Below are positions 2,739 to 11,667 of a stretch of DNA of 23,453 nucleotides, in pieces. Within the stretch, counting starts at the first letter, position 1, and each line of letters starts with the position of its first letter. Source of the stretch: Promethearchaeota archaeon (GTDB lineage Archaea > Asgardarchaeota > Lokiarchaeia > Sigyniarchaeales > SOKP01). Position numbers and translations under genes: made by a program. Below the pieces are notes generated by a model. It had not been told where the DNA came from and did no database searches. It was given only the letters and a program-made list of their open reading frames with translations. The stretch covers positions 1 through 23,453 of the forward strand of contig JAHPZI010000012.1 in the NCBI GenBank assembly GCA_019058295.1, written 5' to 3'.

Positions 2739-4118
2739 TTGACGTATTTTAAATTAATTGCGGGAATTAATTGTGGTATTGATAAATCTGTGTGCCAAAA
2801 TGGATACCCAGATAATTGTTTTAGTTGCTTGGCAAAAAAATTTAGTGATGCTGGTTTTTTGATGGATATTATTAATGTTACTGAGCAACATTCAGAGCAA
2901 AAAAGAAAAGAGCTATTATATAAAAATATATGGGATAAATACAATGACATGGTAACAATAAGACACGTGATAGTACTTACTAAAGGAGGAATTCCAGCTC
3001 TAAATATGAATATAGGTGATTTGCCTATTAATGCCGGTTTAATATCAGGATTTATTCAAGCTAATGTGTCATTTTCGGCACAGGAATTAACCATTTTAGA
3101 CAAATTTAAATTAGAAAAGAAGCTTTACGAGTTTGATTATAAAAATTTTAATGTCCTCTTGTATGATGGTAAATTATGCAGAATTTGTTTGATTCTTGAT
3201 CAAAAAGCTTCAAATAGTTTAAAAGAATTATTGATAGACTTTGCAGGTTTTTTCGAAGATAATTATGAGGATGAATTAAAGAAAGTTGAGGAATTATGTG
3301 ATGAGGATATATTAGAACCAGCTAAAAAATTAATAGAGAAAAGTTTTGAAATAAATATGAATTATCCTCTCATTCTGTCTTCGCTAATACCACCAAATAT
3401 AATTGAAAATCTTTCTTTAGTTCAAAAAGCAATATATGAATGTGCGAAAGATTTGCTAAAAGAAGATGATTATTTTTTTATAACGTATCTTATGGTTAAA
3501 ACTTCAAAACTGTTAGGAGTGGTATCAGATGAAGAAGTACTTTGGAATATTCGTCAATTGATGAAGAATAACATAATACTTTCACAAGGTTTAGAATTTC
3601 AAAAACAAGAAAAACAAGAATCAGAAACAATGGCGCAAGAAAAACAAGAAAGGGAAGATATATTTCAAAAAATTAAGGAGAAAAGAGATTTCGAGGAAAT
3701 TGTTTTCGAGACTCATGAAATGAGCATTGAGGAAGCAAACATAAAAATTAATTCGTTAATGAAGAAAGCTGAAATCACAGAAAGGAATGCTGCATATCAA
3801 GAAGCGTTAGATGAGTATCAAATGGCACTTAATTATGCAAAGGAATTCAATATGAAAAAAAAGGTAGATGAAATCTCGTCAAAAATTTCTGGAATTACCA
3901 AACTCAATAAAGAAGTTGAATTAAAATTTGCTATTCAACAAGCCTCCAAATATGAATTAAAAAAAGATTATGTATTTGCATTAAAATACTTCTTTCAAAT
4001 TAAAGATATTTTAATTGACGAAAATGATGATGGCAAGCACGATAAACAGTTAAAGAAAATAGACCGTCGGATTGAAAAAATTCAAAAGCAATTCAAAAGA
4101 GATCATAGCGAAGTTTAA
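2739..4118 (+). CDS. Longin-like domain protein with a probable winged-helix segment and C-terminal helical (TPR/MIT-like) repeats
   Basis: IRHVIVLTKGGIP...LISGFIQANVSF...EFDYKNFNVLLYDGK is typical of lokiarchaeal longin/roadblock-like domains. The C-terminus has YQEALDEYQMAL and YVFALKYF helical repeats. GGTGA precedes the TTG start; an alternative ATG lies at 2949. Confidence 0.6.
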   Translation: MTYFKLIAGINCGIDKSVCQNGYPDNCFSCLAKKFSDAGFLMDIINVTEQHSEQKRKELLYKNIWDKYNDMVTIRHVIVLTKGGIPALNMNIGDLPINAGLISGFIQANVSFSAQELTILDKFKLEKKLYEFDYKNFNVLLYDGKLCRICLILDQKASNSLKELLIDFAGFFEDNYEDELKKVEELCDEDILEPAKKLIEKSFEINMNYPLILSSLIPPNIIENLSLVQKAIYECAKDLLKEDDYFFITYLMVKTSKLLGVVSDEEVLWNIRQLMKNNIILSQGLEFQKQEKQESETMAQEKQEREDIFQKIKEKRDFEEIVFETHEMSIEEANIKINSLMKKAEITERNAAYQEALDEYQMALNYAKEFNMKKKVDEISSKISGITKLNKEVELKFAIQQASKYELKKDYVFALKYFFQIKDILIDENDDGKHDKQLKKIDRRIEKIQKQFKRDHSEV

Positions 4119-4180: not shown

Positions 4181-4963
4181 TTATTCAGCCACTCTTGAAG
4201 GAATAACAACAATTTCATCTCCTTCTTCAAGATTATAATCCTTCAAAACTAGATTCTCATCAAAAGTAATACCACCGCAGGATAAGTGAAAATTTGCGGG
4301 TTTTAGACCAAATAAATGTCCAACCGTTTCTTTAAGGGCGCTTATCTTATTATTCAAATTAATATTTAAATCTCGTGTTTTCTCTCCTGGGTTTAATATT
4401 GAGATGATAAAAATATTAATCAATGGTTCAAGCTTGATTTCAAGAGGCTCTTTAATATATGGTTTCTTATCAATTTCCTTTAACTTATCAATTTGAGGTT
4501 CTAAAGATACTGGTTTTGAATTTATTTCGGATTCGCATTCCAAATTTGGAATACACGTAACTTTGGGATTTTCTTCTTCAAACTCAACCATTTTATCTAC
4601 TTCTAATTTAGTTAAAAGTTCTTTCAAGTGAAGATTTTCTTCTTCTAAACTCATTATTTTATCAATTAATTTTTCAGTAATTTGCTTCGTGAGGTTCTCA
4701 GAAAAAATATTAGTATTTTCAATTTCTATAATTTCAACAGCTCGGATGTGCAACTGAGCATCAATATAAAGAATAGTTAGTAGATCTTCTAAGTTATCCT
4801 CAGACGAGTGAAGAAAAACAAATGGAAAAGGAAATGCAGTTCTATTTTCAGTTATGTTTTTTGGTATTTTTATATTATGAATTATCTTACATTTTGGGCA
4901 ATTATAAAACCTATTTAGATATTCTGGCTCTATTGATGTGTCGTAATTAGAGTCTTCAGACAT
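4181..4963 (-). CDS. Zn-ribbon-like domain + coiled coil + C-terminal ubiquitin-like domain lacking the terminal Gly
   Basis: N-terminal CPKC...FPFVFLH...YIDA. The last 79 aa align without gaps to the Ubl at 9883..10230 (37/79 identical by hand count) and end SRVAE. Confidence 0.85.
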   Translation of the reverse strand: MSEDSNYDTSIEPEYLNRFYNCPKCKIIHNIKIPKNITENRTAFPFPFVFLHSSEDNLEDLLTILYIDAQLHIRAVEIIEIENTNIFSENLTKQITEKLIDKIMSLEEENLHLKELLTKLEVDKMVEFEEENPKVTCIPNLECESEINSKPVSLEPQIDKLKEIDKKPYIKEPLEIKLEPLINIFIISILNPGEKTRDLNINLNNKISALKETVGHLFGLKPANFHLSCGGITFDENLVLKDYNLEEGDEIVVIPSRVAE

Positions 4964-5029: not shown

Positions 5030-5164
5030 ATAATTATGACTGTAATAGGTATCGTTGGAGGGCTTCTTCTCGTGGTCTTTAGACGTTTAGCCATTAGAGA
5101 TGATTAAAAAGGAAAATATGAATTTGATTTTTCTATTTATGAAGAAGATATTAAAGAATTTAAC
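5030..5164 (+). pseudogene. Decayed internal fragment of a LysE-family paralogue
   Basis: Translates IIMTVIGIVGGLLLVVFRRLAIRDD*KGKYEFDFSIYEEDIKEFN, 31/45 identical to the LysE segment at 5398..5532, with an in-frame TAA at 5105..5107. Confidence 0.9.
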
Positions 5165-5190
5165 TATAATTCCCTACTATAAAAAATATA

Positions 5191-5850
5191 ATGCTTGAGA
5201 TTTTTTTATTTTCTTTTTTAATTGCTCTCACTGGAGCATTATCTCCAGGACCCGTTTTAACATATACAATCTATAAATCTCTCAATGAAAAAAGAGGGTA
5301 TTTGGCAGGATTCTTTATTATTTTAGGGCATGCTACATTAGAACTCGCGCTTATAACACTCCTCTTGTTGGGAGCTTATTTATTTTTCCAAAATATTATA
5401 GTTTTAACTGTAATTGGCATTGTAGGGGGAATTCTTCTTGTGATATTTGGTTGCTTGGTTATAAGAGACGTTTATAAAGGAAAGTATGAAATTGATTTTT
5501 CCGTTTCTGAAGAAGACATTAAAGGATTTAAGGGAAATAGCTTTCTTGGGGGAATAATAGTATCACTTTCTAATCCTTTTTGGACTTTATGGTGGGCTGT
5601 TATTGGCTTAAGCTTTATGATTAATTTTCACATAAGTTTTGATAATCCAACAGGACTATTACTCTTCTATTTGGGACATGAGTTAGGTGATTTTGCGTGG
5701 TATATCCCAATTTCTATATTTGTATATTTAGGTGGAAAATCAATAAATCCTAAGGTATTTAAATATGTCTTGATTGGATGTGGTGCATTTATGATTGGAT
5801 TTGGAATTTATTTAGCTTTAAATATAGTTCTCTTCCCGCCAAAAATATGA
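5191..5850 (+). CDS. LysE/RhtB family transporter
   Basis: N-terminal ALTGALSPGP, GHA.LE and GIIVSLSNPFW motifs, with about 6 TM helices in 219 aa. Confidence 0.9.
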   Translation: MLEIFLFSFLIALTGALSPGPVLTYTIYKSLNEKRGYLAGFFIILGHATLELALITLLLLGAYLFFQNIIVLTVIGIVGGILLVIFGCLVIRDVYKGKYEIDFSVSEEDIKGFKGNSFLGGIIVSLSNPFWTLWWAVIGLSFMINFHISFDNPTGLLLFYLGHELGDFAWYIPISIFVYLGGKSINPKVFKYVLIGCGAFMIGFGIYLALNIVLFPPKI

Positions 5851-5881: not shown

Positions 5882-7054
5882 TTATCCTTTTCTTTTGTAC
5901 TCTTTTATTACTTCTAAATATGTTTTGACTGGAATTACCTTAGGATTTCGGAGAAATGATGGTGGAATTGGAGCGTCACATCGCGAACAGAGTGGTGATG
6001 CCTTAGCCCAGTCTTTAAATTCATCAGCGTGAGCAGGATGTCTACAATTTGGACAAATTACAATCCCTCGCCTTTCATCAGCAGGAATCTTTGGTAATTC
6101 AAAGCAAAATATACATTTAAAATCTTCTAACGATAATATTCCTGCCTTTGGCATTAATTTTTCGTAGCTTGGTCTTGCTACAGCGCTTTGGCGAGAGGGT
6201 GTTGGACTTGAGGCAGCCTTTTGACGAGAGGGTCTTGGTCTTGATGTGCTGGGTGTCGAAGTCCGTGTGGTTGCGGGTCTGGAAGTTCTAGGAGTTGCGG
6301 AGCTAGAAACTACAGGTCGTGAAGGAGTTGTTGGAGTTGCTCTGGGAGCTGCAGGTCTTACAGGTGTTGATGTTATCCCTTCTAAACGCCTTCTTCGGCG
6401 AGCAAGATAATCCGACGATAGTTCAGGTACAGCGCGCGGAGAACCAAAAATAGCATGCCTGACAAATAAATATATTAAAACGCAACAAACGAATATAAGC
6501 ATAAAATCAAAACTAAAATAATAAGTCTGTTGGACAATATAAAAAAAATAATAAAAAACCACAATGTTATAATTAACCATGTAAGATATTAGGATAATCA
6601 AAATAAAAATCACATAAAAAATCACAAATTTTCGAGCATTTAAGGACCGCGTACGGAAGATATATACAACATAAAATTTAGTAAAACAAGATCGAAGTGT
6701 CCATAAACTATATAAAAAGTATGGAAGAGCAAAAATTATGATCCACAAACTAATATATAACCGTGGAAAAAAATCTTGCAATAGATTTTCCCCCCAAAAT
6801 CCTGTAAAATAGCTCCATATACTGTAAAACATTGCTACACCTAAAGGACATAAAAGAAAAAAAGAGGTGTTTTTAGGTGAGTTATATTCTTTATACTCTT
6901 TTCGCTTTTGAAAAAATTTAATTGTAAAAAGAATCCAAAGCCCAATTAAAACTATTGAGAGAAAAGTATTCCACGACTCCAATATAATTAAACCATAAAA
7001 TAAAGCTATACCAATGGTAAACAGTAGTATTAAAGCTGTTCTTATCTTCAGCAA
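5882..7054 (-). CDS. Membrane-anchored RING-variant protein, putative E3 ligase
   Basis: About 6 TM helices, a Pro/Ser/Thr/Arg low-complexity linker, then CIFC-x16-CPNC-x4-H-x2-E-x3-W-x6-CSRC. Last gene of the Ubl-E1-E2-JAMM run; GGTGA precedes the TTG start. Confidence 0.75.
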   Translation of the reverse strand: MLKIRTALILLFTIGIALFYGLIILESWNTFLSIVLIGLWILFTIKFFQKRKEYKEYNSPKNTSFFLLCPLGVAMFYSIWSYFTGFWGENLLQDFFPRLYISLWIIIFALPYFLYSLWTLRSCFTKFYVVYIFRTRSLNARKFVIFYVIFILIILISYMVNYNIVVFYYFFYIVQQTYYFSFDFMLIFVCCVLIYLFVRHAIFGSPRAVPELSSDYLARRRRRLEGITSTPVRPAAPRATPTTPSRPVVSSSATPRTSRPATTRTSTPSTSRPRPSRQKAASSPTPSRQSAVARPSYEKLMPKAGILSLEDFKCIFCFELPKIPADERRGIVICPNCRHPAHADEFKDWAKASPLCSRCDAPIPPSFLRNPKVIPVKTYLEVIKEYKRKG

Positions 7055-7091: not shown

Positions 7092-7892
7092 TTATCTTTC
7101 TTCAAATTCAAGATCTGTAGCTTTATTTTCTACTATGGGACTAAGAAACTCTAATAGTTCGGGTAGAGCTCTTACATCCAATGCTCCTTTTACGAGAAAA
7201 GGGACCTTATTATATCTATTTGATTTAAAATCCACACGATATATCTCAAATCCATAGGAATATCCATCGATTTTAAAAGGGTCCATTACCAATGCTACAG
7301 AATCTTCCCATTGTTTTTGAAAATTCGAGTGGGTTTCAAAGTCGTCAGAACTGAGAAAGAGTCCATGAGATGGATGAGAATGATACCATCCACATATAAA
7401 TTGGCCTAACTTTTTTAGATGCTTAAAAACTTTTGTAAATTTACTTGAATCTCTCATAAACACATCTACGACTGAAACAATATCGCCATGAGTTATTGGA
7501 TAGGCGTTTACAATATGAAGTTTAGGACCATAATCATACATCTTTCCTCCCAATATTCCAAAAACTTCACACCATTCTCGTTTAGGTAAACTACGATTTG
7601 CAAATTTTAATGAATGTGTGGCAATTTTGAGAATTGCTTTAGTTGATATACTTATTGTTACTTTATCCAATAAATCCTCTTTCTGATTTGGTTCAGTTAT
7701 TTGCGTTGATTCAACTGGAGTAAGCAAATTTTCCTCACTTAATCGAGAAACTACAGCGTCAGTTAAGCTTTCTTTTTCAGATTTTAGCTCTGTATAGACT
7801 TCATTGAGAATTTCCTTTTTTAATTTCTCTTTAATTTGCTGTTTCATATCATCCTTAATAGTATCTTCATTCAATTCATCATCTTCAGGCAT
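7092..7892 (-). CDS. JAMM/MPN+ metalloisopeptidase (Rpn11/CSN5-like)
   Basis: EVFGILGG...GWYHSHPSHGLFLSSDD matches the E-xn-HSH-x7-S-x2-D JAMM motif. It has an acidic helical N-terminal extension. Confidence 0.95.
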   Translation of the reverse strand: MPEDDELNEDTIKDDMKQQIKEKLKKEILNEVYTELKSEKESLTDAVVSRLSEENLLTPVESTQITEPNQKEDLLDKVTISISTKAILKIATHSLKFANRSLPKREWCEVFGILGGKMYDYGPKLHIVNAYPITHGDIVSVVDVFMRDSSKFTKVFKHLKKLGQFICGWYHSHPSHGLFLSSDDFETHSNFQKQWEDSVALVMDPFKIDGYSYGFEIYRVDFKSNRYNKVPFLVKGALDVRALPELLEFLSPIVENKATDLEFEER

Positions 7893-7912
7893 TTAGAGCC
7901 CCTCACCACAGT

Positions 7913-8440
7913 TTACCATTTCTTATTAGCATATTTTTTTACTAAAAACTTAACTTTTTTCTCAAATTCCTTTTGATTTTTCATTGCCTCTATTGCGGCC
8001 TTCTTATTAAATACGTCTGTCGGATTAAAAAATTTCCCTCGTGTATTTAACATAGCTGTTATTGCTTGTATTACAGTTACGATGGTCTTACTTGGCGACC
8101 AGCCCCCTTTTTTACCTACATAATTAGGATCTACTAGGGCTAGACAAATATTCCTCTGTCCCGGGTATTCGTTAGGTTTGGCCCAGAAATTTGGGTGCCA
8201 AATCGCTGTATGAAGTCGCACAAAGGGAGGGTGATTTGGATAATTTGGAGGGTATTTGATCTCTAGTTTAAAAAGTCCTCCTTGATAGGCTGTCTTTTTT
8301 GGACCCTTTAATAATACAGCAATATGATCTATACTTTTTTTTTTAGGATCAAATGGTTTTAATTGTGTTATTACTCCAGTTTTTACCATCTTCTTAAGAG
8401 CGGCAAAGTCCTGTGAAATTCGTGAACTTCTTAAACTCAT
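7913..8440 (-). CDS. Ubiquitin-conjugating enzyme E2 (UBC fold)
   Basis: GPKKTAYQGGLFKLEIKYPPNYPNHPPFV, IWHPN, catalytic ICL and WSPSKTI motifs. Confidence 0.95.
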   Translation of the reverse strand: MSLRSSRISQDFAALKKMVKTGVITQLKPFDPKKKSIDHIAVLLKGPKKTAYQGGLFKLEIKYPPNYPNHPPFVRLHTAIWHPNFWAKPNEYPGQRNICLALVDPNYVGKKGGWSPSKTIVTVIQAITAMLNTRGKFFNPTDVFNKKAAIEAMKNQKEFEKKVKFLVKKYANKKW

Positions 8441-8532
8441 TTTATATTCTCATACTCAAATTGTTATAATTTATATATTTTATTGTAATAATAATAAAAA
8501 CTTATAATATATAATCCTAATTAAATCGAAAA

Positions 8533-9768
8533 TTAACCTTTTAAATTAAGATTTATAAAAATTTCTCCACCTTTGAAACCAACGGCAGTAATCAATTCTA
8601 AATTTCTCAGTCGATTTTTATTAGCAGAGCGTTCAAGATCAATTACTCGTACATCGTCAAAATCCATTAATGTTAGGGTTGGTTCAAAATATGGATCTAT
8701 TTCAAAACCTTGACTTTCTAAATCACGGATGATTTGCTCACATTTTTCCTTCTTTTTAATTGAAACATCGACTCTTCTGACATTATCACCACACTGTAGG
8801 CAATCAGAGCGTCTTATTTTTTCTATGGGATAAAATTTTAAAGTCATTGCATTAAATACGACATAAGATTTAATTGGTTCCCCTAACGCTTCATTTCCGG
8901 CTAACCAATGGATAATTTTAATGGTTTCATGTGATTGAATTGATGATATTACAGCATTAATTGTTATAATTGCGGGATCGTGGGCATCAATTACTTTAAC
9001 TATATCAGCTTTCGAGAATAGTGGTAAAAAATCATGTTTTTTAGCGAGTTCATTAGCTCTTTCTTGAATAAAACTGACATCTTTTATGTTTTTTGGCTTT
9101 GGATTTCTGTCAAATTTCTCTTGAAAAGCCATGTTACCTTTGAAAATACAATGTATTCTCTTTCTCGGGATGCCCACAACAGTACAAGCTGCCATTTCAT
9201 CTGATTCTCCAACAGGAAGAGGATTGCACTCGTAACAGGCATTTTCATAGGGAAAAATTGTATATAAATGTCCATGATAACCAGATGTACCCCCATCTAC
9301 TAATGGTTTTTTAAATCTAACTGCTTGAGCGTTCAAATTGAGCCTGGCATTCATCGAATCGAGACCACCCACAATAACATCAGCTGAACTATATATTGAA
9401 GGATCTAAACGTTCAAGGGTTGTGTGGTAGCCTATGATCTTAATGTTTGGATTAATATCTTTCAACCTTTTTGCGGCAATTATTGCTTTCGATGATCCCA
9501 TTTTTGCTCCAGCAAAAAGTAATTGCCGATTTAAATTTGAGTGTTCTATTATATCCAAATCCACTAAATCGAGATGCCCAACTCCTAACATTGCCAAATT
9601 TTTAGCAATTTCACATCCAAGACCACCGACACCTGCGATTAAAACTCGGGAGTTTTTAACTAATTTTTGAGACCAACCTTCGAGACGGAATTGTCGATCA
9701 TAGAGATCTCTTTCTTCTACACTCAAATCTTTACTGAAAAAATCTGAACCTTCTTCCAATTTTCCCAC
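8533..9768 (-). CDS. Ubiquitin-like activating enzyme E1 (UBA3/UBA2-like catalytic-cysteine type)
   Basis: YDRQ, GVGGLGCE, SNLNRQ, Zn motifs CYEC and CLQC, catalytic ACTVVGIPRKRIHCI, PAIITINAV and a C-terminal domain of about 80 aa. GTG start. Confidence 0.95.
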   Translation of the reverse strand: MGKLEEGSDFFSKDLSVEERDLYDRQFRLEGWSQKLVKNSRVLIAGVGGLGCEIAKNLAMLGVGHLDLVDLDIIEHSNLNRQLLFAGAKMGSSKAIIAAKRLKDINPNIKIIGYHTTLERLDPSIYSSADVIVGGLDSMNARLNLNAQAVRFKKPLVDGGTSGYHGHLYTIFPYENACYECNPLPVGESDEMAACTVVGIPRKRIHCIFKGNMAFQEKFDRNPKPKNIKDVSFIQERANELAKKHDFLPLFSKADIVKVIDAHDPAIITINAVISSIQSHETIKIIHWLAGNEALGEPIKSYVVFNAMTLKFYPIEKIRRSDCLQCGDNVRRVDVSIKKKEKCEQIIRDLESQGFEIDPYFEPTLTLMDFDDVRVIDLERSANKNRLRNLELITAVGFKGGEIFINLNLKG

Positions 9769-9882: not shown

Positions 9883-10230
9883 TTAGATCCCTGCAGTCGA
9901 AGCAGGAATAAGCAAAACCTCATCGCCATCATTCACGCCGTATTGACTCAATGGGGCACCCTCATCCATAGTTACCCCCCCAGAACTCAAATGAAAATCG
10001 TTTGGGTCTAAACCGAATATATTTCCAACTGTCTGCTTGATAGCTGATACATTATTTCCATCGTCAACTAATAATTTTTGTCTTTTTTCCCCAGGGCCAA
10101 TCGTGCTGAGGAAAAACAAATTAATCTTATTACCTCCTGCAGGTGCCGTTGCTGCTGGTGTTTTACTTCTTTCTGGCTGTTTCTCCTGTGGCTCTTCTCC
10201 TAAGTCCTCATCAAAATCAAATTCTCCCAT
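9883..10230 (-). CDS. Ubiquitin-like modifier precursor with an acidic N-terminal extension and C-terminal AG-I
   Basis: The beta-grasp pattern (SAIKQTV, FHLSSGGVTMDEGAPLSQYGV..GDEVLL) aligns with ubiquitin [20 protein letters not shown]. It is the first gene ahead of E1/E2/JAMM. Confidence 0.92.
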   Translation of the reverse strand: MGEFDFDEDLGEEPQEKQPERSKTPAATAPAGGNKINLFFLSTIGPGEKRQKLLVDDGNNVSAIKQTVGNIFGLDPNDFHLSSGGVTMDEGAPLSQYGVNDGDEVLLIPASTAGI

Positions 10231-10373
10231 ATTATTTAAACTCCAAAATTTTTTATTTTATTATTTTGTTTAAATTTAATATATACAATAACTATTTAAT
10301 CATTTTGCTCTTAAATAATTTTATATAAAAAATTACATTTAGTTAATGAATTAATAGAGTTTGATTGTATAAA
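10231..10373. promoter_or_regulatory. Divergent promoter region with a TATA-like element
   Basis: TTTTATATAAAA near 10319..10330 is palindromic and lies between divergent genes. The AT-rich background lowers specificity. Confidence 0.35.
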
Positions 10374-11279
10374 ATGTCAGATAAACCTCCTCCTAAATAT
10401 ATGATTAAAGATAAAACTCCCTCTAAAGAAGAAATAATTGTTGCAGATAAAACATTGCTTAAAAAGATCATAGATGAGCGTAAATCCTTAGAAAAGGAAA
10501 AAACTGAATGGGAAAGTACGCTTAAGAAAATGCAAGCATATCAAGAGTCATTTAAAGAATTAGAAAGAAAAAGAAAAAGCATCGAAAGTGAGATAAGGGA
10601 TTTACAGAATGAAAAAGACAGATTAAATAAAACGCTTAATGATATACAGAATGATATCAATGGTGAAAAAAAACAAATCGAAAATCAAAAACGAATTATT
10701 GAGGACTCCAATAGGAAATTAAAAAAGCAACGTAATTATATAGAAAAGCAATCAAATGTTCTCAAAAAACAACAAAAAGACTTTAATAAAATAAAACGAG
10801 ATATAGAGAACGAAAGGAAAGCTTTGGATCGTGATAGGAAAAACGAGGAGAATCAATTAAAAGATATCAAAAGTAAGATCCCTCCATTAGAAAAACGGAG
10901 TAATACTTTGGACAATAAGGTTAGAAATCTTGAAAATAAGCAACAAGATTTAAAAAATGATGTGAAAAGATTAGAAAACCAAAAAAGTGCGCTTACATCT
11001 AATATTCAAAATGAGAAAAAGAAACTCCAAAATGAGAAAGATAAAATAGATTCTTATGTTCAAAACGAGAAAAGGAAAATAGAGAATGAAAAATCTCAAA
11101 TCAATAACGAAAAAAATAATATAAAGCGTGAAAGGGAAAAATTAAATAAAGAAAAAGATAATTTAAGACGAGATCGTGAAAAACTTGATGCTGAAATCAG
11201 AAAACTGAAATCTATTCCTAAAAAACCAATAAAATCTAAAACTCCTGCTATAAAATCCAAAACCCCAAAAGGATATTAA
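10374..11279 (+). CDS. Long coiled-coil protein with a basic KSKTP tail
   Basis: About 250 aa of near-continuous heptads (IQNEKKK LQNEKDK, IENEKSQ INNEKNN IKREREK LNKEKDN). ATG at 10374 is preferred to TTG at 10365. Confidence 0.8.
   Translation: MSDKPPPKYMIKDKTPSKEEIIVADKTLLKKIIDERKSLEKEKTEWESTLKKMQAYQESFKELERKRKSIESEIRDLQNEKDRLNKTLNDIQNDINGEKKQIENQKRIIEDSNRKLKKQRNYIEKQSNVLKKQQKDFNKIKRDIENERKALDRDRKNEENQLKDIKSKIPPLEKRSNTLDNKVRNLENKQQDLKNDVKRLENQKSALTSNIQNEKKKLQNEKDKIDSYVQNEKRKIENEKSQINNEKNNIKREREKLNKEKDNLRRDREKLDAEIRKLKSIPKKPIKSKTPAIKSKTPKGY
11229..11267 (+). repeat. Imperfect tandem repeat (21-bp period) encoding IKSKTP twice
   Basis: ataaaatctaaaactcct at 11229 and ataaaatccaaaacccca at 11250. 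Confidence 0.7.
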
Positions 11280-11398
11280 ATATATTATTGATATTATATC
11301 TCAATAATACATTTAAATTTTAACACAGCTTGTTTAGTCCTCTTTAAAGCAGTATTTAGATGTTAAGAATAGATTTATAAATTAAAGAGGATAGTAAT

Positions 11399-11656
11399 TT
11401 GAACTCTGAATCTCGTGCCATTTTAATGCGGAAATTGATGACAATCTGTCCAGTCTGTAAGAAACAAATTTACGGCAGAGATATTGATATAAAAAATATT
11501 GAGAAATCCAGATCGAAAATTGATCATTGGCCTCTAAGATATGTACATTGTCACGATAACGGTAACTTCCCTATGCATGCTTTAATGATTTATATTGACG
11601 CTAATTTTTCTGTTAGAGGGCTGGAAACTTCTAATTTTGTAAAAATTCAAGAATAG
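11399..11656 (+). CDS. Small putative Zn-binding protein (CPxC...HxH...H...YIDA)
   Basis: Shares motifs with the N-terminal domain of 4181..4963. GAGG lies upstream of the TTG start. Confidence 0.75.
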   Translation: MNSESRAILMRKLMTICPVCKKQIYGRDIDIKNIEKSRSKIDHWPLRYVHCHDNGNFPMHALMIYIDANFSVRGLETSNFVKIQE

Positions 11657-11667
11657 CTCTAATTTTT

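Follow-up and report, generated by a model that had tools for sequence, protein, structure and literature searches.

The operon of Caldiarchaeum subterraneum is an archaeal system in which a ubiquitin-like modifier (Ubl) is encoded together with E1, E2, JAMM, and RING proteins (PMC5654768, PMC6043591). Its modifier carries a C-terminal extension that is removed by the operon JAMM, and a terminal Gly is exposed by this step. The Rpn11/JAMM enzyme cuts exactly after the GG of the ubiquitin precursor; it accepts Ala in place of the last Gly but does not cleave when this residue is Val or Glu (PMC6043591). The locus described here resembles this operon in its gene content. However, alongside the free Ubl it has an additional, accessory gene for a Ubl, an arrangement that differs from that of C. 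subterraneum. The product of this gene (hereafter the fusion protein) has approximately 180 extra N-terminal residues, which make up a putative zinc domain, a zipper, and a linker, and the fusion end is -AG as against -GG.

In bacterial Bil/Bub systems, some Ubls have N-terminal coiled coils, and one such protein, a CC-Ubl1, was shown to be a homodimer (PMC11601603). As in the fusion protein, a single beta-grasp follows a coiled coil or another N-terminal domain and is encoded with E1, E2, and JAMM genes, and these proteins are the nearest architectural precedent for the fusion. However, the Bil/Bub systems are bacterial, some are linked to defense, their operon type is different, and they lack the Cys2-His2 beta domain; no homology between the N-terminal regions is apparent. 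Rad23, Dsk2, and Ddi1 also hold a ubiquitin-like domain within a larger protein, but their UBL is at the N-terminus, comes together with UBA domains, and in no orthologue has a conjugatable end. In contrast, the fusion has its Ubl at the C-terminus, with a modifier-type end that is conserved family-wide, and a Pfam scan (E up to 0.1) found neither a UBA domain nor any other known ubiquitin-binding family in the protein; the uncharacterized N-domain may nonetheless have a binding function of its own. ISG15 and FAT10 are likewise modifiers larger than ubiquitin whose C-terminal beta-grasp supplies the conjugated Gly, but their extra domain is a second beta-grasp and that of the fusion is a zinc domain with a zipper. 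Full-text literature searches returned no description of the fusion family. A Znr-PH-CC-SB ESCRT-I-like protein (PMC10936438) was considered as a described equivalent and was set aside because its architecture is different.

The fusion gene lies in a window of 23,453 nucleotides, which is the whole stretch of DNA that was analyzed and has a G+C content of about 30%. The features of interest are as follows.

2739-4118, + strand: 459-aa protein with no Pfam match, convergent with the fusion gene
4181-4963, - strand: whole fusion gene, 260 aa (ORF and translation), encoding a putative zinc-binding beta domain, a leucine zipper, a linker, and a C-terminal Ubl
4724-4921, - strand: N-terminal five-stranded beta domain, residues 15-80 (AF2 model), with candidate zinc ligands C22, C25, H52, and H29
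4592-4699, - strand: long helix, residues 89-124, with a leucine-zipper pattern (helix in both models)
4424-4591, - strand: acidic/Lys-rich linker, residues 125-180 (low confidence, pLDDT <50)
4184-4423, - strand: Ubl (predicted beta-grasp), residues 181-260, paralogous to the operon Ubl (BLASTP and PDB fold matches)
4184-4186, - strand: codon GAA of Glu260 at the conserved terminal Gly position (GGA in relatives), read 4186-4184 and followed by the stop codon TAA at 4183-4181
5191-5850, + strand: LysE-type exporter (Pfam LysE, E 1.2e-31), between the fusion gene and the operon
5882-7054, - strand: membrane protein with a C-terminal RING-like finger, the last operon gene (ORF; weak RING-type Pfam matches; same place in orthologous loci)
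7092-7892, - strand: JAMM/MPN+ peptidase (Pfam JAB, E 2.5e-11)
7913-8440, - strand: E2, UBC fold (Pfam UQ_con, E 3.6e-25)
8533-9768, - strand: E1, ThiF/UBA type (Pfam ThiF, E 2.5e-56)
9883-10230, - strand: free operon Ubl, 115 aa, with the end -STAG-I (translation; Pfam ubiquitin, E 2.1e-5)
11399-11656, + strand: stand-alone 85-aa paralogue of the fusion N-domain (BLASTP against that domain, E 4e-5), adjoining a large coiled-coil RING gene

The genes for a cognate E1, E2, and processing peptidase (7092-9768) are thus near the fusion gene and on its strand. An earlier note on this DNA had placed the fusion gene on the same strand as the operon with only LysE between them, and this is the case: both are on the - strand, and the LysE gene, on the + strand, is the sole intervening ORF. 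On the other side of the fusion gene, the gene for the 459-aa protein keeps its position in the two closest genomes (L013 and L025) and does not in L008.

The relationship between the fusion protein and the operon Ubl is close. The earlier note had counted 37 identities in the C-terminal 79 residues of the fusion, without gaps, and the count is exact when these residues are compared with the 79 residues of the operon Ubl that come just before its last residue, Ile. BLASTP aligns the two proteins at 43% identity over 105 columns (E 8e-28), a sequence similarity that is far beyond chance. The C-terminal 80 residues form a beta-grasp in an AF2 model, with pLDDT values of 82-87 over residues 181-255, and the best fold matches of this domain in the PDB are the ISG15 C-domain, the Dsk2 UBL, and ubiquitin (Z 12-14, rmsd 1-2.7 A, 74-78 residues aligned). 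Among them, the ISG15 C-domain ranks first (Z 14.2, rmsd 2.0 A, 77 residues), and the Dsk2 UBL matches with Z 13.6 and rmsd 1.1 A over 74 residues. The Pfam ubiquitin model detects the domain at E 1.3e-5 and 25.3 bits, just below its cut-off of 25.4. As modeled, the C-terminal domain of the fusion is a ubiquitin-like beta-grasp of the PF00240 type.

Furthermore, a maximum-likelihood tree of Ubl domains upholds the proposal that the fusion Ubl is a paralogue of the modifier, in that the fusion and free Ubls cluster together at 92/92 and apart from other Ubl families. The window protein (P0001) is a terminal branch within the -SRVAG clade of this tree (support 100/99). Gene conversion from a membrane-anchored Ubl with a shared -IPSR- tail was also considered and was rejected, since the P0001 Ubl nests in the fusion clade and the membrane-anchored family forms a separate clade (98/97).

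When the N-terminal 115 residues were modeled alone with AF2 from 150 homologues, the mean pLDDT was 86 and the model consisted of five strands (residues 15-21, 28-34, 46-53, 60-67, and 73-80) followed by a helix of approximately 37 residues. In the 150 homologous domains, C22 is conserved in 149, C25 in 146, H52 in 149, D68 in 150, and R74 in 146. The candidate for a fourth ligand is H29 in 76 domains and a His or Cys in the loop after H52 in 66, whereas six domains carry both and only two lack both (Fisher p 1e-32). That the two positions largely exclude each other speaks for a zinc site with four ligands, and we infer from the conserved residues that the N-domain would bind zinc. The earlier description of the region as Zn-ribbon-like is therefore roughly right as regards its one CPxC knuckle and its conserved His ligands. 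It fails on the number of knuckles: a zinc ribbon has two CxxC knuckles on a small beta-hairpin fold, and this five-stranded beta domain has a single CPxC, its other candidate ligands being H52 and either H29 or a loop His.

Database searches placed the N-domain in no described group. It matched no Pfam family, and a sequence profile search of the PDB gave only weak matches, to GCN4-type zippers and to the IleRS zinc region at E 0.09. Foldseek against the PDB, with a query that included the long helix, gave no match at E <= 0.001, and in a VIA wide search all of the top rows aligned the long helix alone (Z about 5). Feature and shape searches of the ESM Atlas returned only Asgard hypothetical clusters and a weak zinc-ribbon row; this best named fold match, a CPXCG Zn_ribbon_21 cluster, has TM values of 0.42/0.59 over 57 residues. 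A profile search of 1.8 billion representatives yielded 159 clusters of the N-domain family at E <= 0.001. On these sequence comparisons, the Cys2-His2 beta domain is a widespread and so far undescribed module, and its occurrences here are confined to archaea labeled Asgard.

The partners of this domain are diverse. Besides the Ubl, they include RING, TPR, V4R, and winged-helix domains, as well as regions that are Roadblock-like by eye and match no Pfam model. Many proteins of 114-130 aa carry the domain with a zipper as a stand-alone unit, one of them in the window's own genome (L003:1474-1827). The 85-aa paralogue in the window aligns within the N-domain family and is kept beside the RING gene in L013, L025, and L011. 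Elsewhere, in L016, the start of a gene for a small Ras/Rab-like GTPase (491-1027, - strand) is overlapped by 4 bases by the gene for a stand-alone zinc-domain and zipper protein (140 aa, 1024-1446, - strand), which suggests an operon of the two.

The helix after the N-domain has Leu residues spaced by seven (L99, L106, L113, and L120) and an invariant Asn, N110, at an 'a' position. Leu heptads with Asn at 'a' are a hallmark of parallel, dimeric GCN4-type zippers, and the zipper of the fusion probably dimerizes, judging by this pattern. The linker that follows differs among orthologues in both sequence and length. A motif resembling IKSKTP is present in the linker of most fusion orthologues and has been lost in the subclade to which the window protein belongs. 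We also noted that K-S-K-T-P occurs in three places: most fusion orthologues have it in the linker, free Ubls have it directly before the beta-grasp, and a 304-aa coiled-coil protein has it twice at its C-terminus. In the window, the corresponding position in the free Ubl (9883-10230, - strand) is the N-arm, and the 304-aa protein is divergently encoded at 10365-11279 on the + strand.

The C-terminus of the fusion is where the window protein and its family part ways. A Glu at the position of the conjugating Gly had been reported in the earlier note, and the window protein does end in ...IPSRVAE where the operon Ubl ends in ...IPASTAG-I. With its end -SRVAE, the window protein lacks the Gly of a conjugatable Ubl, which the family as a whole has, and it also lacks any extension of the kind found in a pro-Ubl, as in the -STAG-I of the window's free Ubl. 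In an alignment of 38 members, the Glu260 column holds Gly in 36. Among 78 family sequences, 68 have Gly at this position, either as the terminal residue (24) or followed by unconserved tails of 1-19 residues (44). The remaining 10 comprise nine fragments or truncated forms and one protein (P0075) with a short Gly-less tail, and P0001 is the only full-length member of the 78 with another residue at the Gly position.

The typical C-terminus of the family Ubl is the modifier-type -IIPSSTAG, either terminal or with a short tail, and the -STAG end is common to the fusion family and the free operon Ubls, whose orthologues end in -STAG or -STAGI. The closest relatives of P0001 (97%, 90%, 86%, 83%, and 80% identical) all end in -AG. 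The 97%-identical protein (P0222), which comes from another assembly and falls within the 90% cluster of P0001, ends in -SRVAG, and a DNA alignment with the P0006 locus shows a single-base difference, GAA in the window versus GGA. Because the Gly is conserved and the tail is variable, members of this family are probable modifier precursors.

These findings bear directly on the function that had been proposed for the protein, that of an evolved non-conjugatable UBL adaptor or decoy. A loss of Gly conserved in orthologues, as is found in integral UBL proteins, is absent: the orthologues keep -AG, including those 97-80% identical to the window protein, and the proposal is unsupported. The earlier note had itself named two outcomes that would refute its idea, namely that orthologues retain a terminal Gly and are conjugated, or that the fusion is not conserved. 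Retention of Gly is what we observe, in 68 of the 78 sequences; the fusion, however, is conserved. The full domain architecture of the window fusion is common to 75 homologous clusters from a search of a large protein collection, and their source labels, where named, are Promethearchaeota, Hodarchaeota, Thorarchaeota, and Hermodarchaeota.

Linkage to the operon, which the earlier note had singled out for a check in orthologues, recurs in several genomes. The fusion gene adjoins LysE and a Ubl-E1-E2-JAMM-RING operon in four further genomes (L008/L029, L013, L019, and L025), and the position of LysE is kept in L008, L013, L019, L025, and L029. In genome G186 (L028:9703-10470 and 10765-11658, + strand), the membrane RING gene is followed immediately, on the operon strand, by two diverged tandem copies of the fusion gene, each of which ends in -STAG and a tail. 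On the contig of P0075, the fusion gene is the last gene of the operon. Two genomes have the fusion gene 5-8 kb from Ubl, E1, and E2, and four (L020, L021, L023, and L026) have no operon gene within 6-10 kb of it.

Some smaller differences among these loci were also recorded. Between the fusion gene and LysE (window 5064-5167), the intergenic DNA of related genomes carries a short remnant that resembles LysE residues 70-119 (L025:4714-4863 and L013:9785-9934), and contigs from other samples show small insertions and deletions there. At L013:5106-5662, the E2 is called as two ORFs of 85 and 94 aa that match residues 1-90 and 84-175 of the window E2, which indicates a frameshift or an assembly error in that locus.

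The distribution of the fusion is patchy. Full-length fusions occur in 16 of the 161 species-level genomes of the class, a count of true full-length fusions from a stricter search; a looser phylum-wide tally consists mostly of free Ubls and stand-alone N-domain proteins, as seen in L015 and L016. Within the window's genus, 5 of the 9 other genomes have the fusion, and in one sister genus it is found in 0 of 42, although that genus does have Ubl genes. Therefore, the fusion family is an accessory partner of the cascade rather than a core part of it.

Asgard archaea also have Ubl proteins that have lost the terminal Gly, and these provide a reference for the fusion family. The window's genome (G000) contains a second, smaller Ubl cluster on another contig (C22) with genes for a free Ubl ending in -STAG, a RING-like protein, an HTH protein, and a membrane-anchored Ubl; its loci are L005:925-1752 (+ strand), L004:1492-1845 (- strand), and L004:712-1401 (- strand). 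A 229-aa protein of this cluster has the same RING-like finger as the operon membrane protein. The membrane-anchored protein (275 aa) has an N-terminal membrane helix and a C-terminal Ubl that ends in -SRKAEK. Among 91 homologues of this protein, none has a terminal Gly, and typical ends are -SRIPKK, -SRKEKN, and -SRKK. On this sequence record, Asgard archaea have in the membrane-anchored proteins an integral UBL family that is conserved and non-conjugatable. Since Asgard integral UBL families have lost Gly, the retention of -STAG in the fusion family is informative, and the Gly-less state of all 91 membrane-anchored proteins argues that Gly in the fusion family has not merely been kept by inertia.

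Gly-less forms also exist closer to the fusion. Proteins of about 360 aa (P0080, P0081, and a 365-aa protein at L030:9593-10690, - strand) have a Roadblock-like N-terminal region followed by the same zinc domain, zipper, and Ubl, and such Roadblock-like fusions end in -PAQI, -PARI, or -KYKVK, without Gly. In all, P0075, P0080, P0081, P0084, and the 365-aa protein in L030 combine the same N-domain with a Gly-less Ubl, and such relatives suggest that non-covalent roles do arise in the superfamily.

On balance, we consider it fairly probable that the family consists of multidomain Ubls that can probably be conjugated, with trimming by JAMM and attachment by E1, E2, and RING proteins, and that the window copy is a recent allele that has most likely lost conjugation. 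By analogy with the described systems, the operon JAMM peptidase would trim the C-terminal tail where one is present, the neighboring E1 would then activate the exposed Gly, and the E2 and RING enzymes would attach the whole fusion protein to targets. The attached tag would carry the putative zinc-binding beta domain on a probably dimeric leucine zipper, and thus would be a covalently attachable adaptor. In the window's strain, a single G-to-A change converted the terminal Gly to Glu, and the allele would act only non-covalently, if at all.

An alternative that we judge unlikely is that the whole family is a non-covalent UBL adaptor, shuttle, or decoy that docks on E1, JAMM, RING, the proteasome, or Cdc48, with -AG serving for recognition only, for example in a competitive inhibitor or a scaffold. 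The N-domain and zipper do resemble a binding or oligomerizing module, and the Gly-less relatives described above share this N-domain. Moreover, the window allele persists at depth 18 in its population, and its Ubl segment still shows roughly 0.2 non-synonymous changes per synonymous change relative to the closest relative. However, an exact -STAG end, whether terminal or before unconserved tails, is a signature of modifiers and their precursors and not of integral UBLs, a true integral Ubl family in the same genome has lost Gly completely, and Pfam finds no UBA or other known receptor-binding domain in the fusion.

Glu260 is in all likelihood a genuine allele, private or rare, and no trait of the family. 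Because relatives from 97% to 80% identical all end in -AG, this Glu, private to the population of the assembly, appears to be a recent change. In a Logan assembly, made independently from the likely source run, position 4185 has the Glu base at a word depth of 18, and no variant is listed. The Gly base is found there in a second sample from the study of that run and in a contig from a different study that is 98% identical. A further contig from that other study, 93% identical, seems from its depth sums to retain the Glu base, and given this second occurrence the Glu allele may be no dead end. No RNA sample was listed as containing this DNA, a result that is neutral with regard to expression. 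The term non-conjugatable, which the earlier note had applied to the protein, is plausible for the Glu260 allele alone, by analogy with the Caldiarchaeum JAMM/Rpn11, whose cleavage in vitro is prevented when the terminal Gly is replaced by Glu (PMC6043591). The allele may reflect a loss that happened recently, a move toward acting non-covalently, or incipient decay.

The last of these could be extended to the gene itself, with loss of Gly as the first step in the pseudogenization of an often-lost accessory gene that is decaying in the window's lineage. The patchy distribution of the fusion even within the genus fits this idea, as do two changes (S229C and G260E) that are private to P0001 and fall on Ubl positions that are invariant elsewhere. 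However, the frame is intact. In addition, in a comparison with the 97% relative, the N-domain and zipper show 2 synonymous changes and no non-synonymous change, and the Ubl segment shows 11 and 6, respectively, which points to a more diverged, mosaic segment under purifying selection and not to relaxed drift. We therefore regard decay as quite improbable.

Relaxed selection on the Ubl after the loss of Gly was considered as a separate explanation for these differences and was rejected, because the excess is also present at synonymous sites (11 versus 2), as would be the case for a mosaic with a more diverged segment. Window positions 4184-4963 and L014:40-822, the locus of the 97% relative, differ at 2 codons in the first 126 and at 17 in the last 80, and the DNA that flanks the fusion gene is approximately 96% identical between them. 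This mosaic divergence suggests recombination within the fusion gene. Very improbable, finally, is that Glu260 is an assembly or sequencing artifact and the real gene ends in Gly: the codon is one base away from GGA and the Gly base is seen in two other samples, but the same Glu base was recovered in the Logan assembly, is apparently shared by the 93%-identical contig, and is accompanied by other private changes nearby (S229C and N216H).

If the reading of the family as conjugatable Ubls holds, the Asgard ubiquitin-type cascade handles both a small tag and a tag of 260-300 residues with a zinc domain and a zipper. Such a capacity would imply a broader repertoire for the pre-eukaryotic ubiquitin system, for example covalent recruitment or cross-linking. 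Because some forms in the superfamily keep Gly and others lack it, they make up a natural series in which to follow how integral UBL domains evolved from modifiers, and the Glu allele and its 97%-identical Gly sibling form a matched natural pair. More tentatively, the family might be seen as a covalently attachable adaptor with a dimeric zinc module, from which Gly-less offshoots (the Glu allele, P0075, and the Roadblock-like proteins ending in -PAQI or -PARI) represent repeated transitions from modifier to integral UBL. If this possibility were true, such transitions would be the path from ubiquitin-like tags to UBL-domain proteins of the eukaryotic type.
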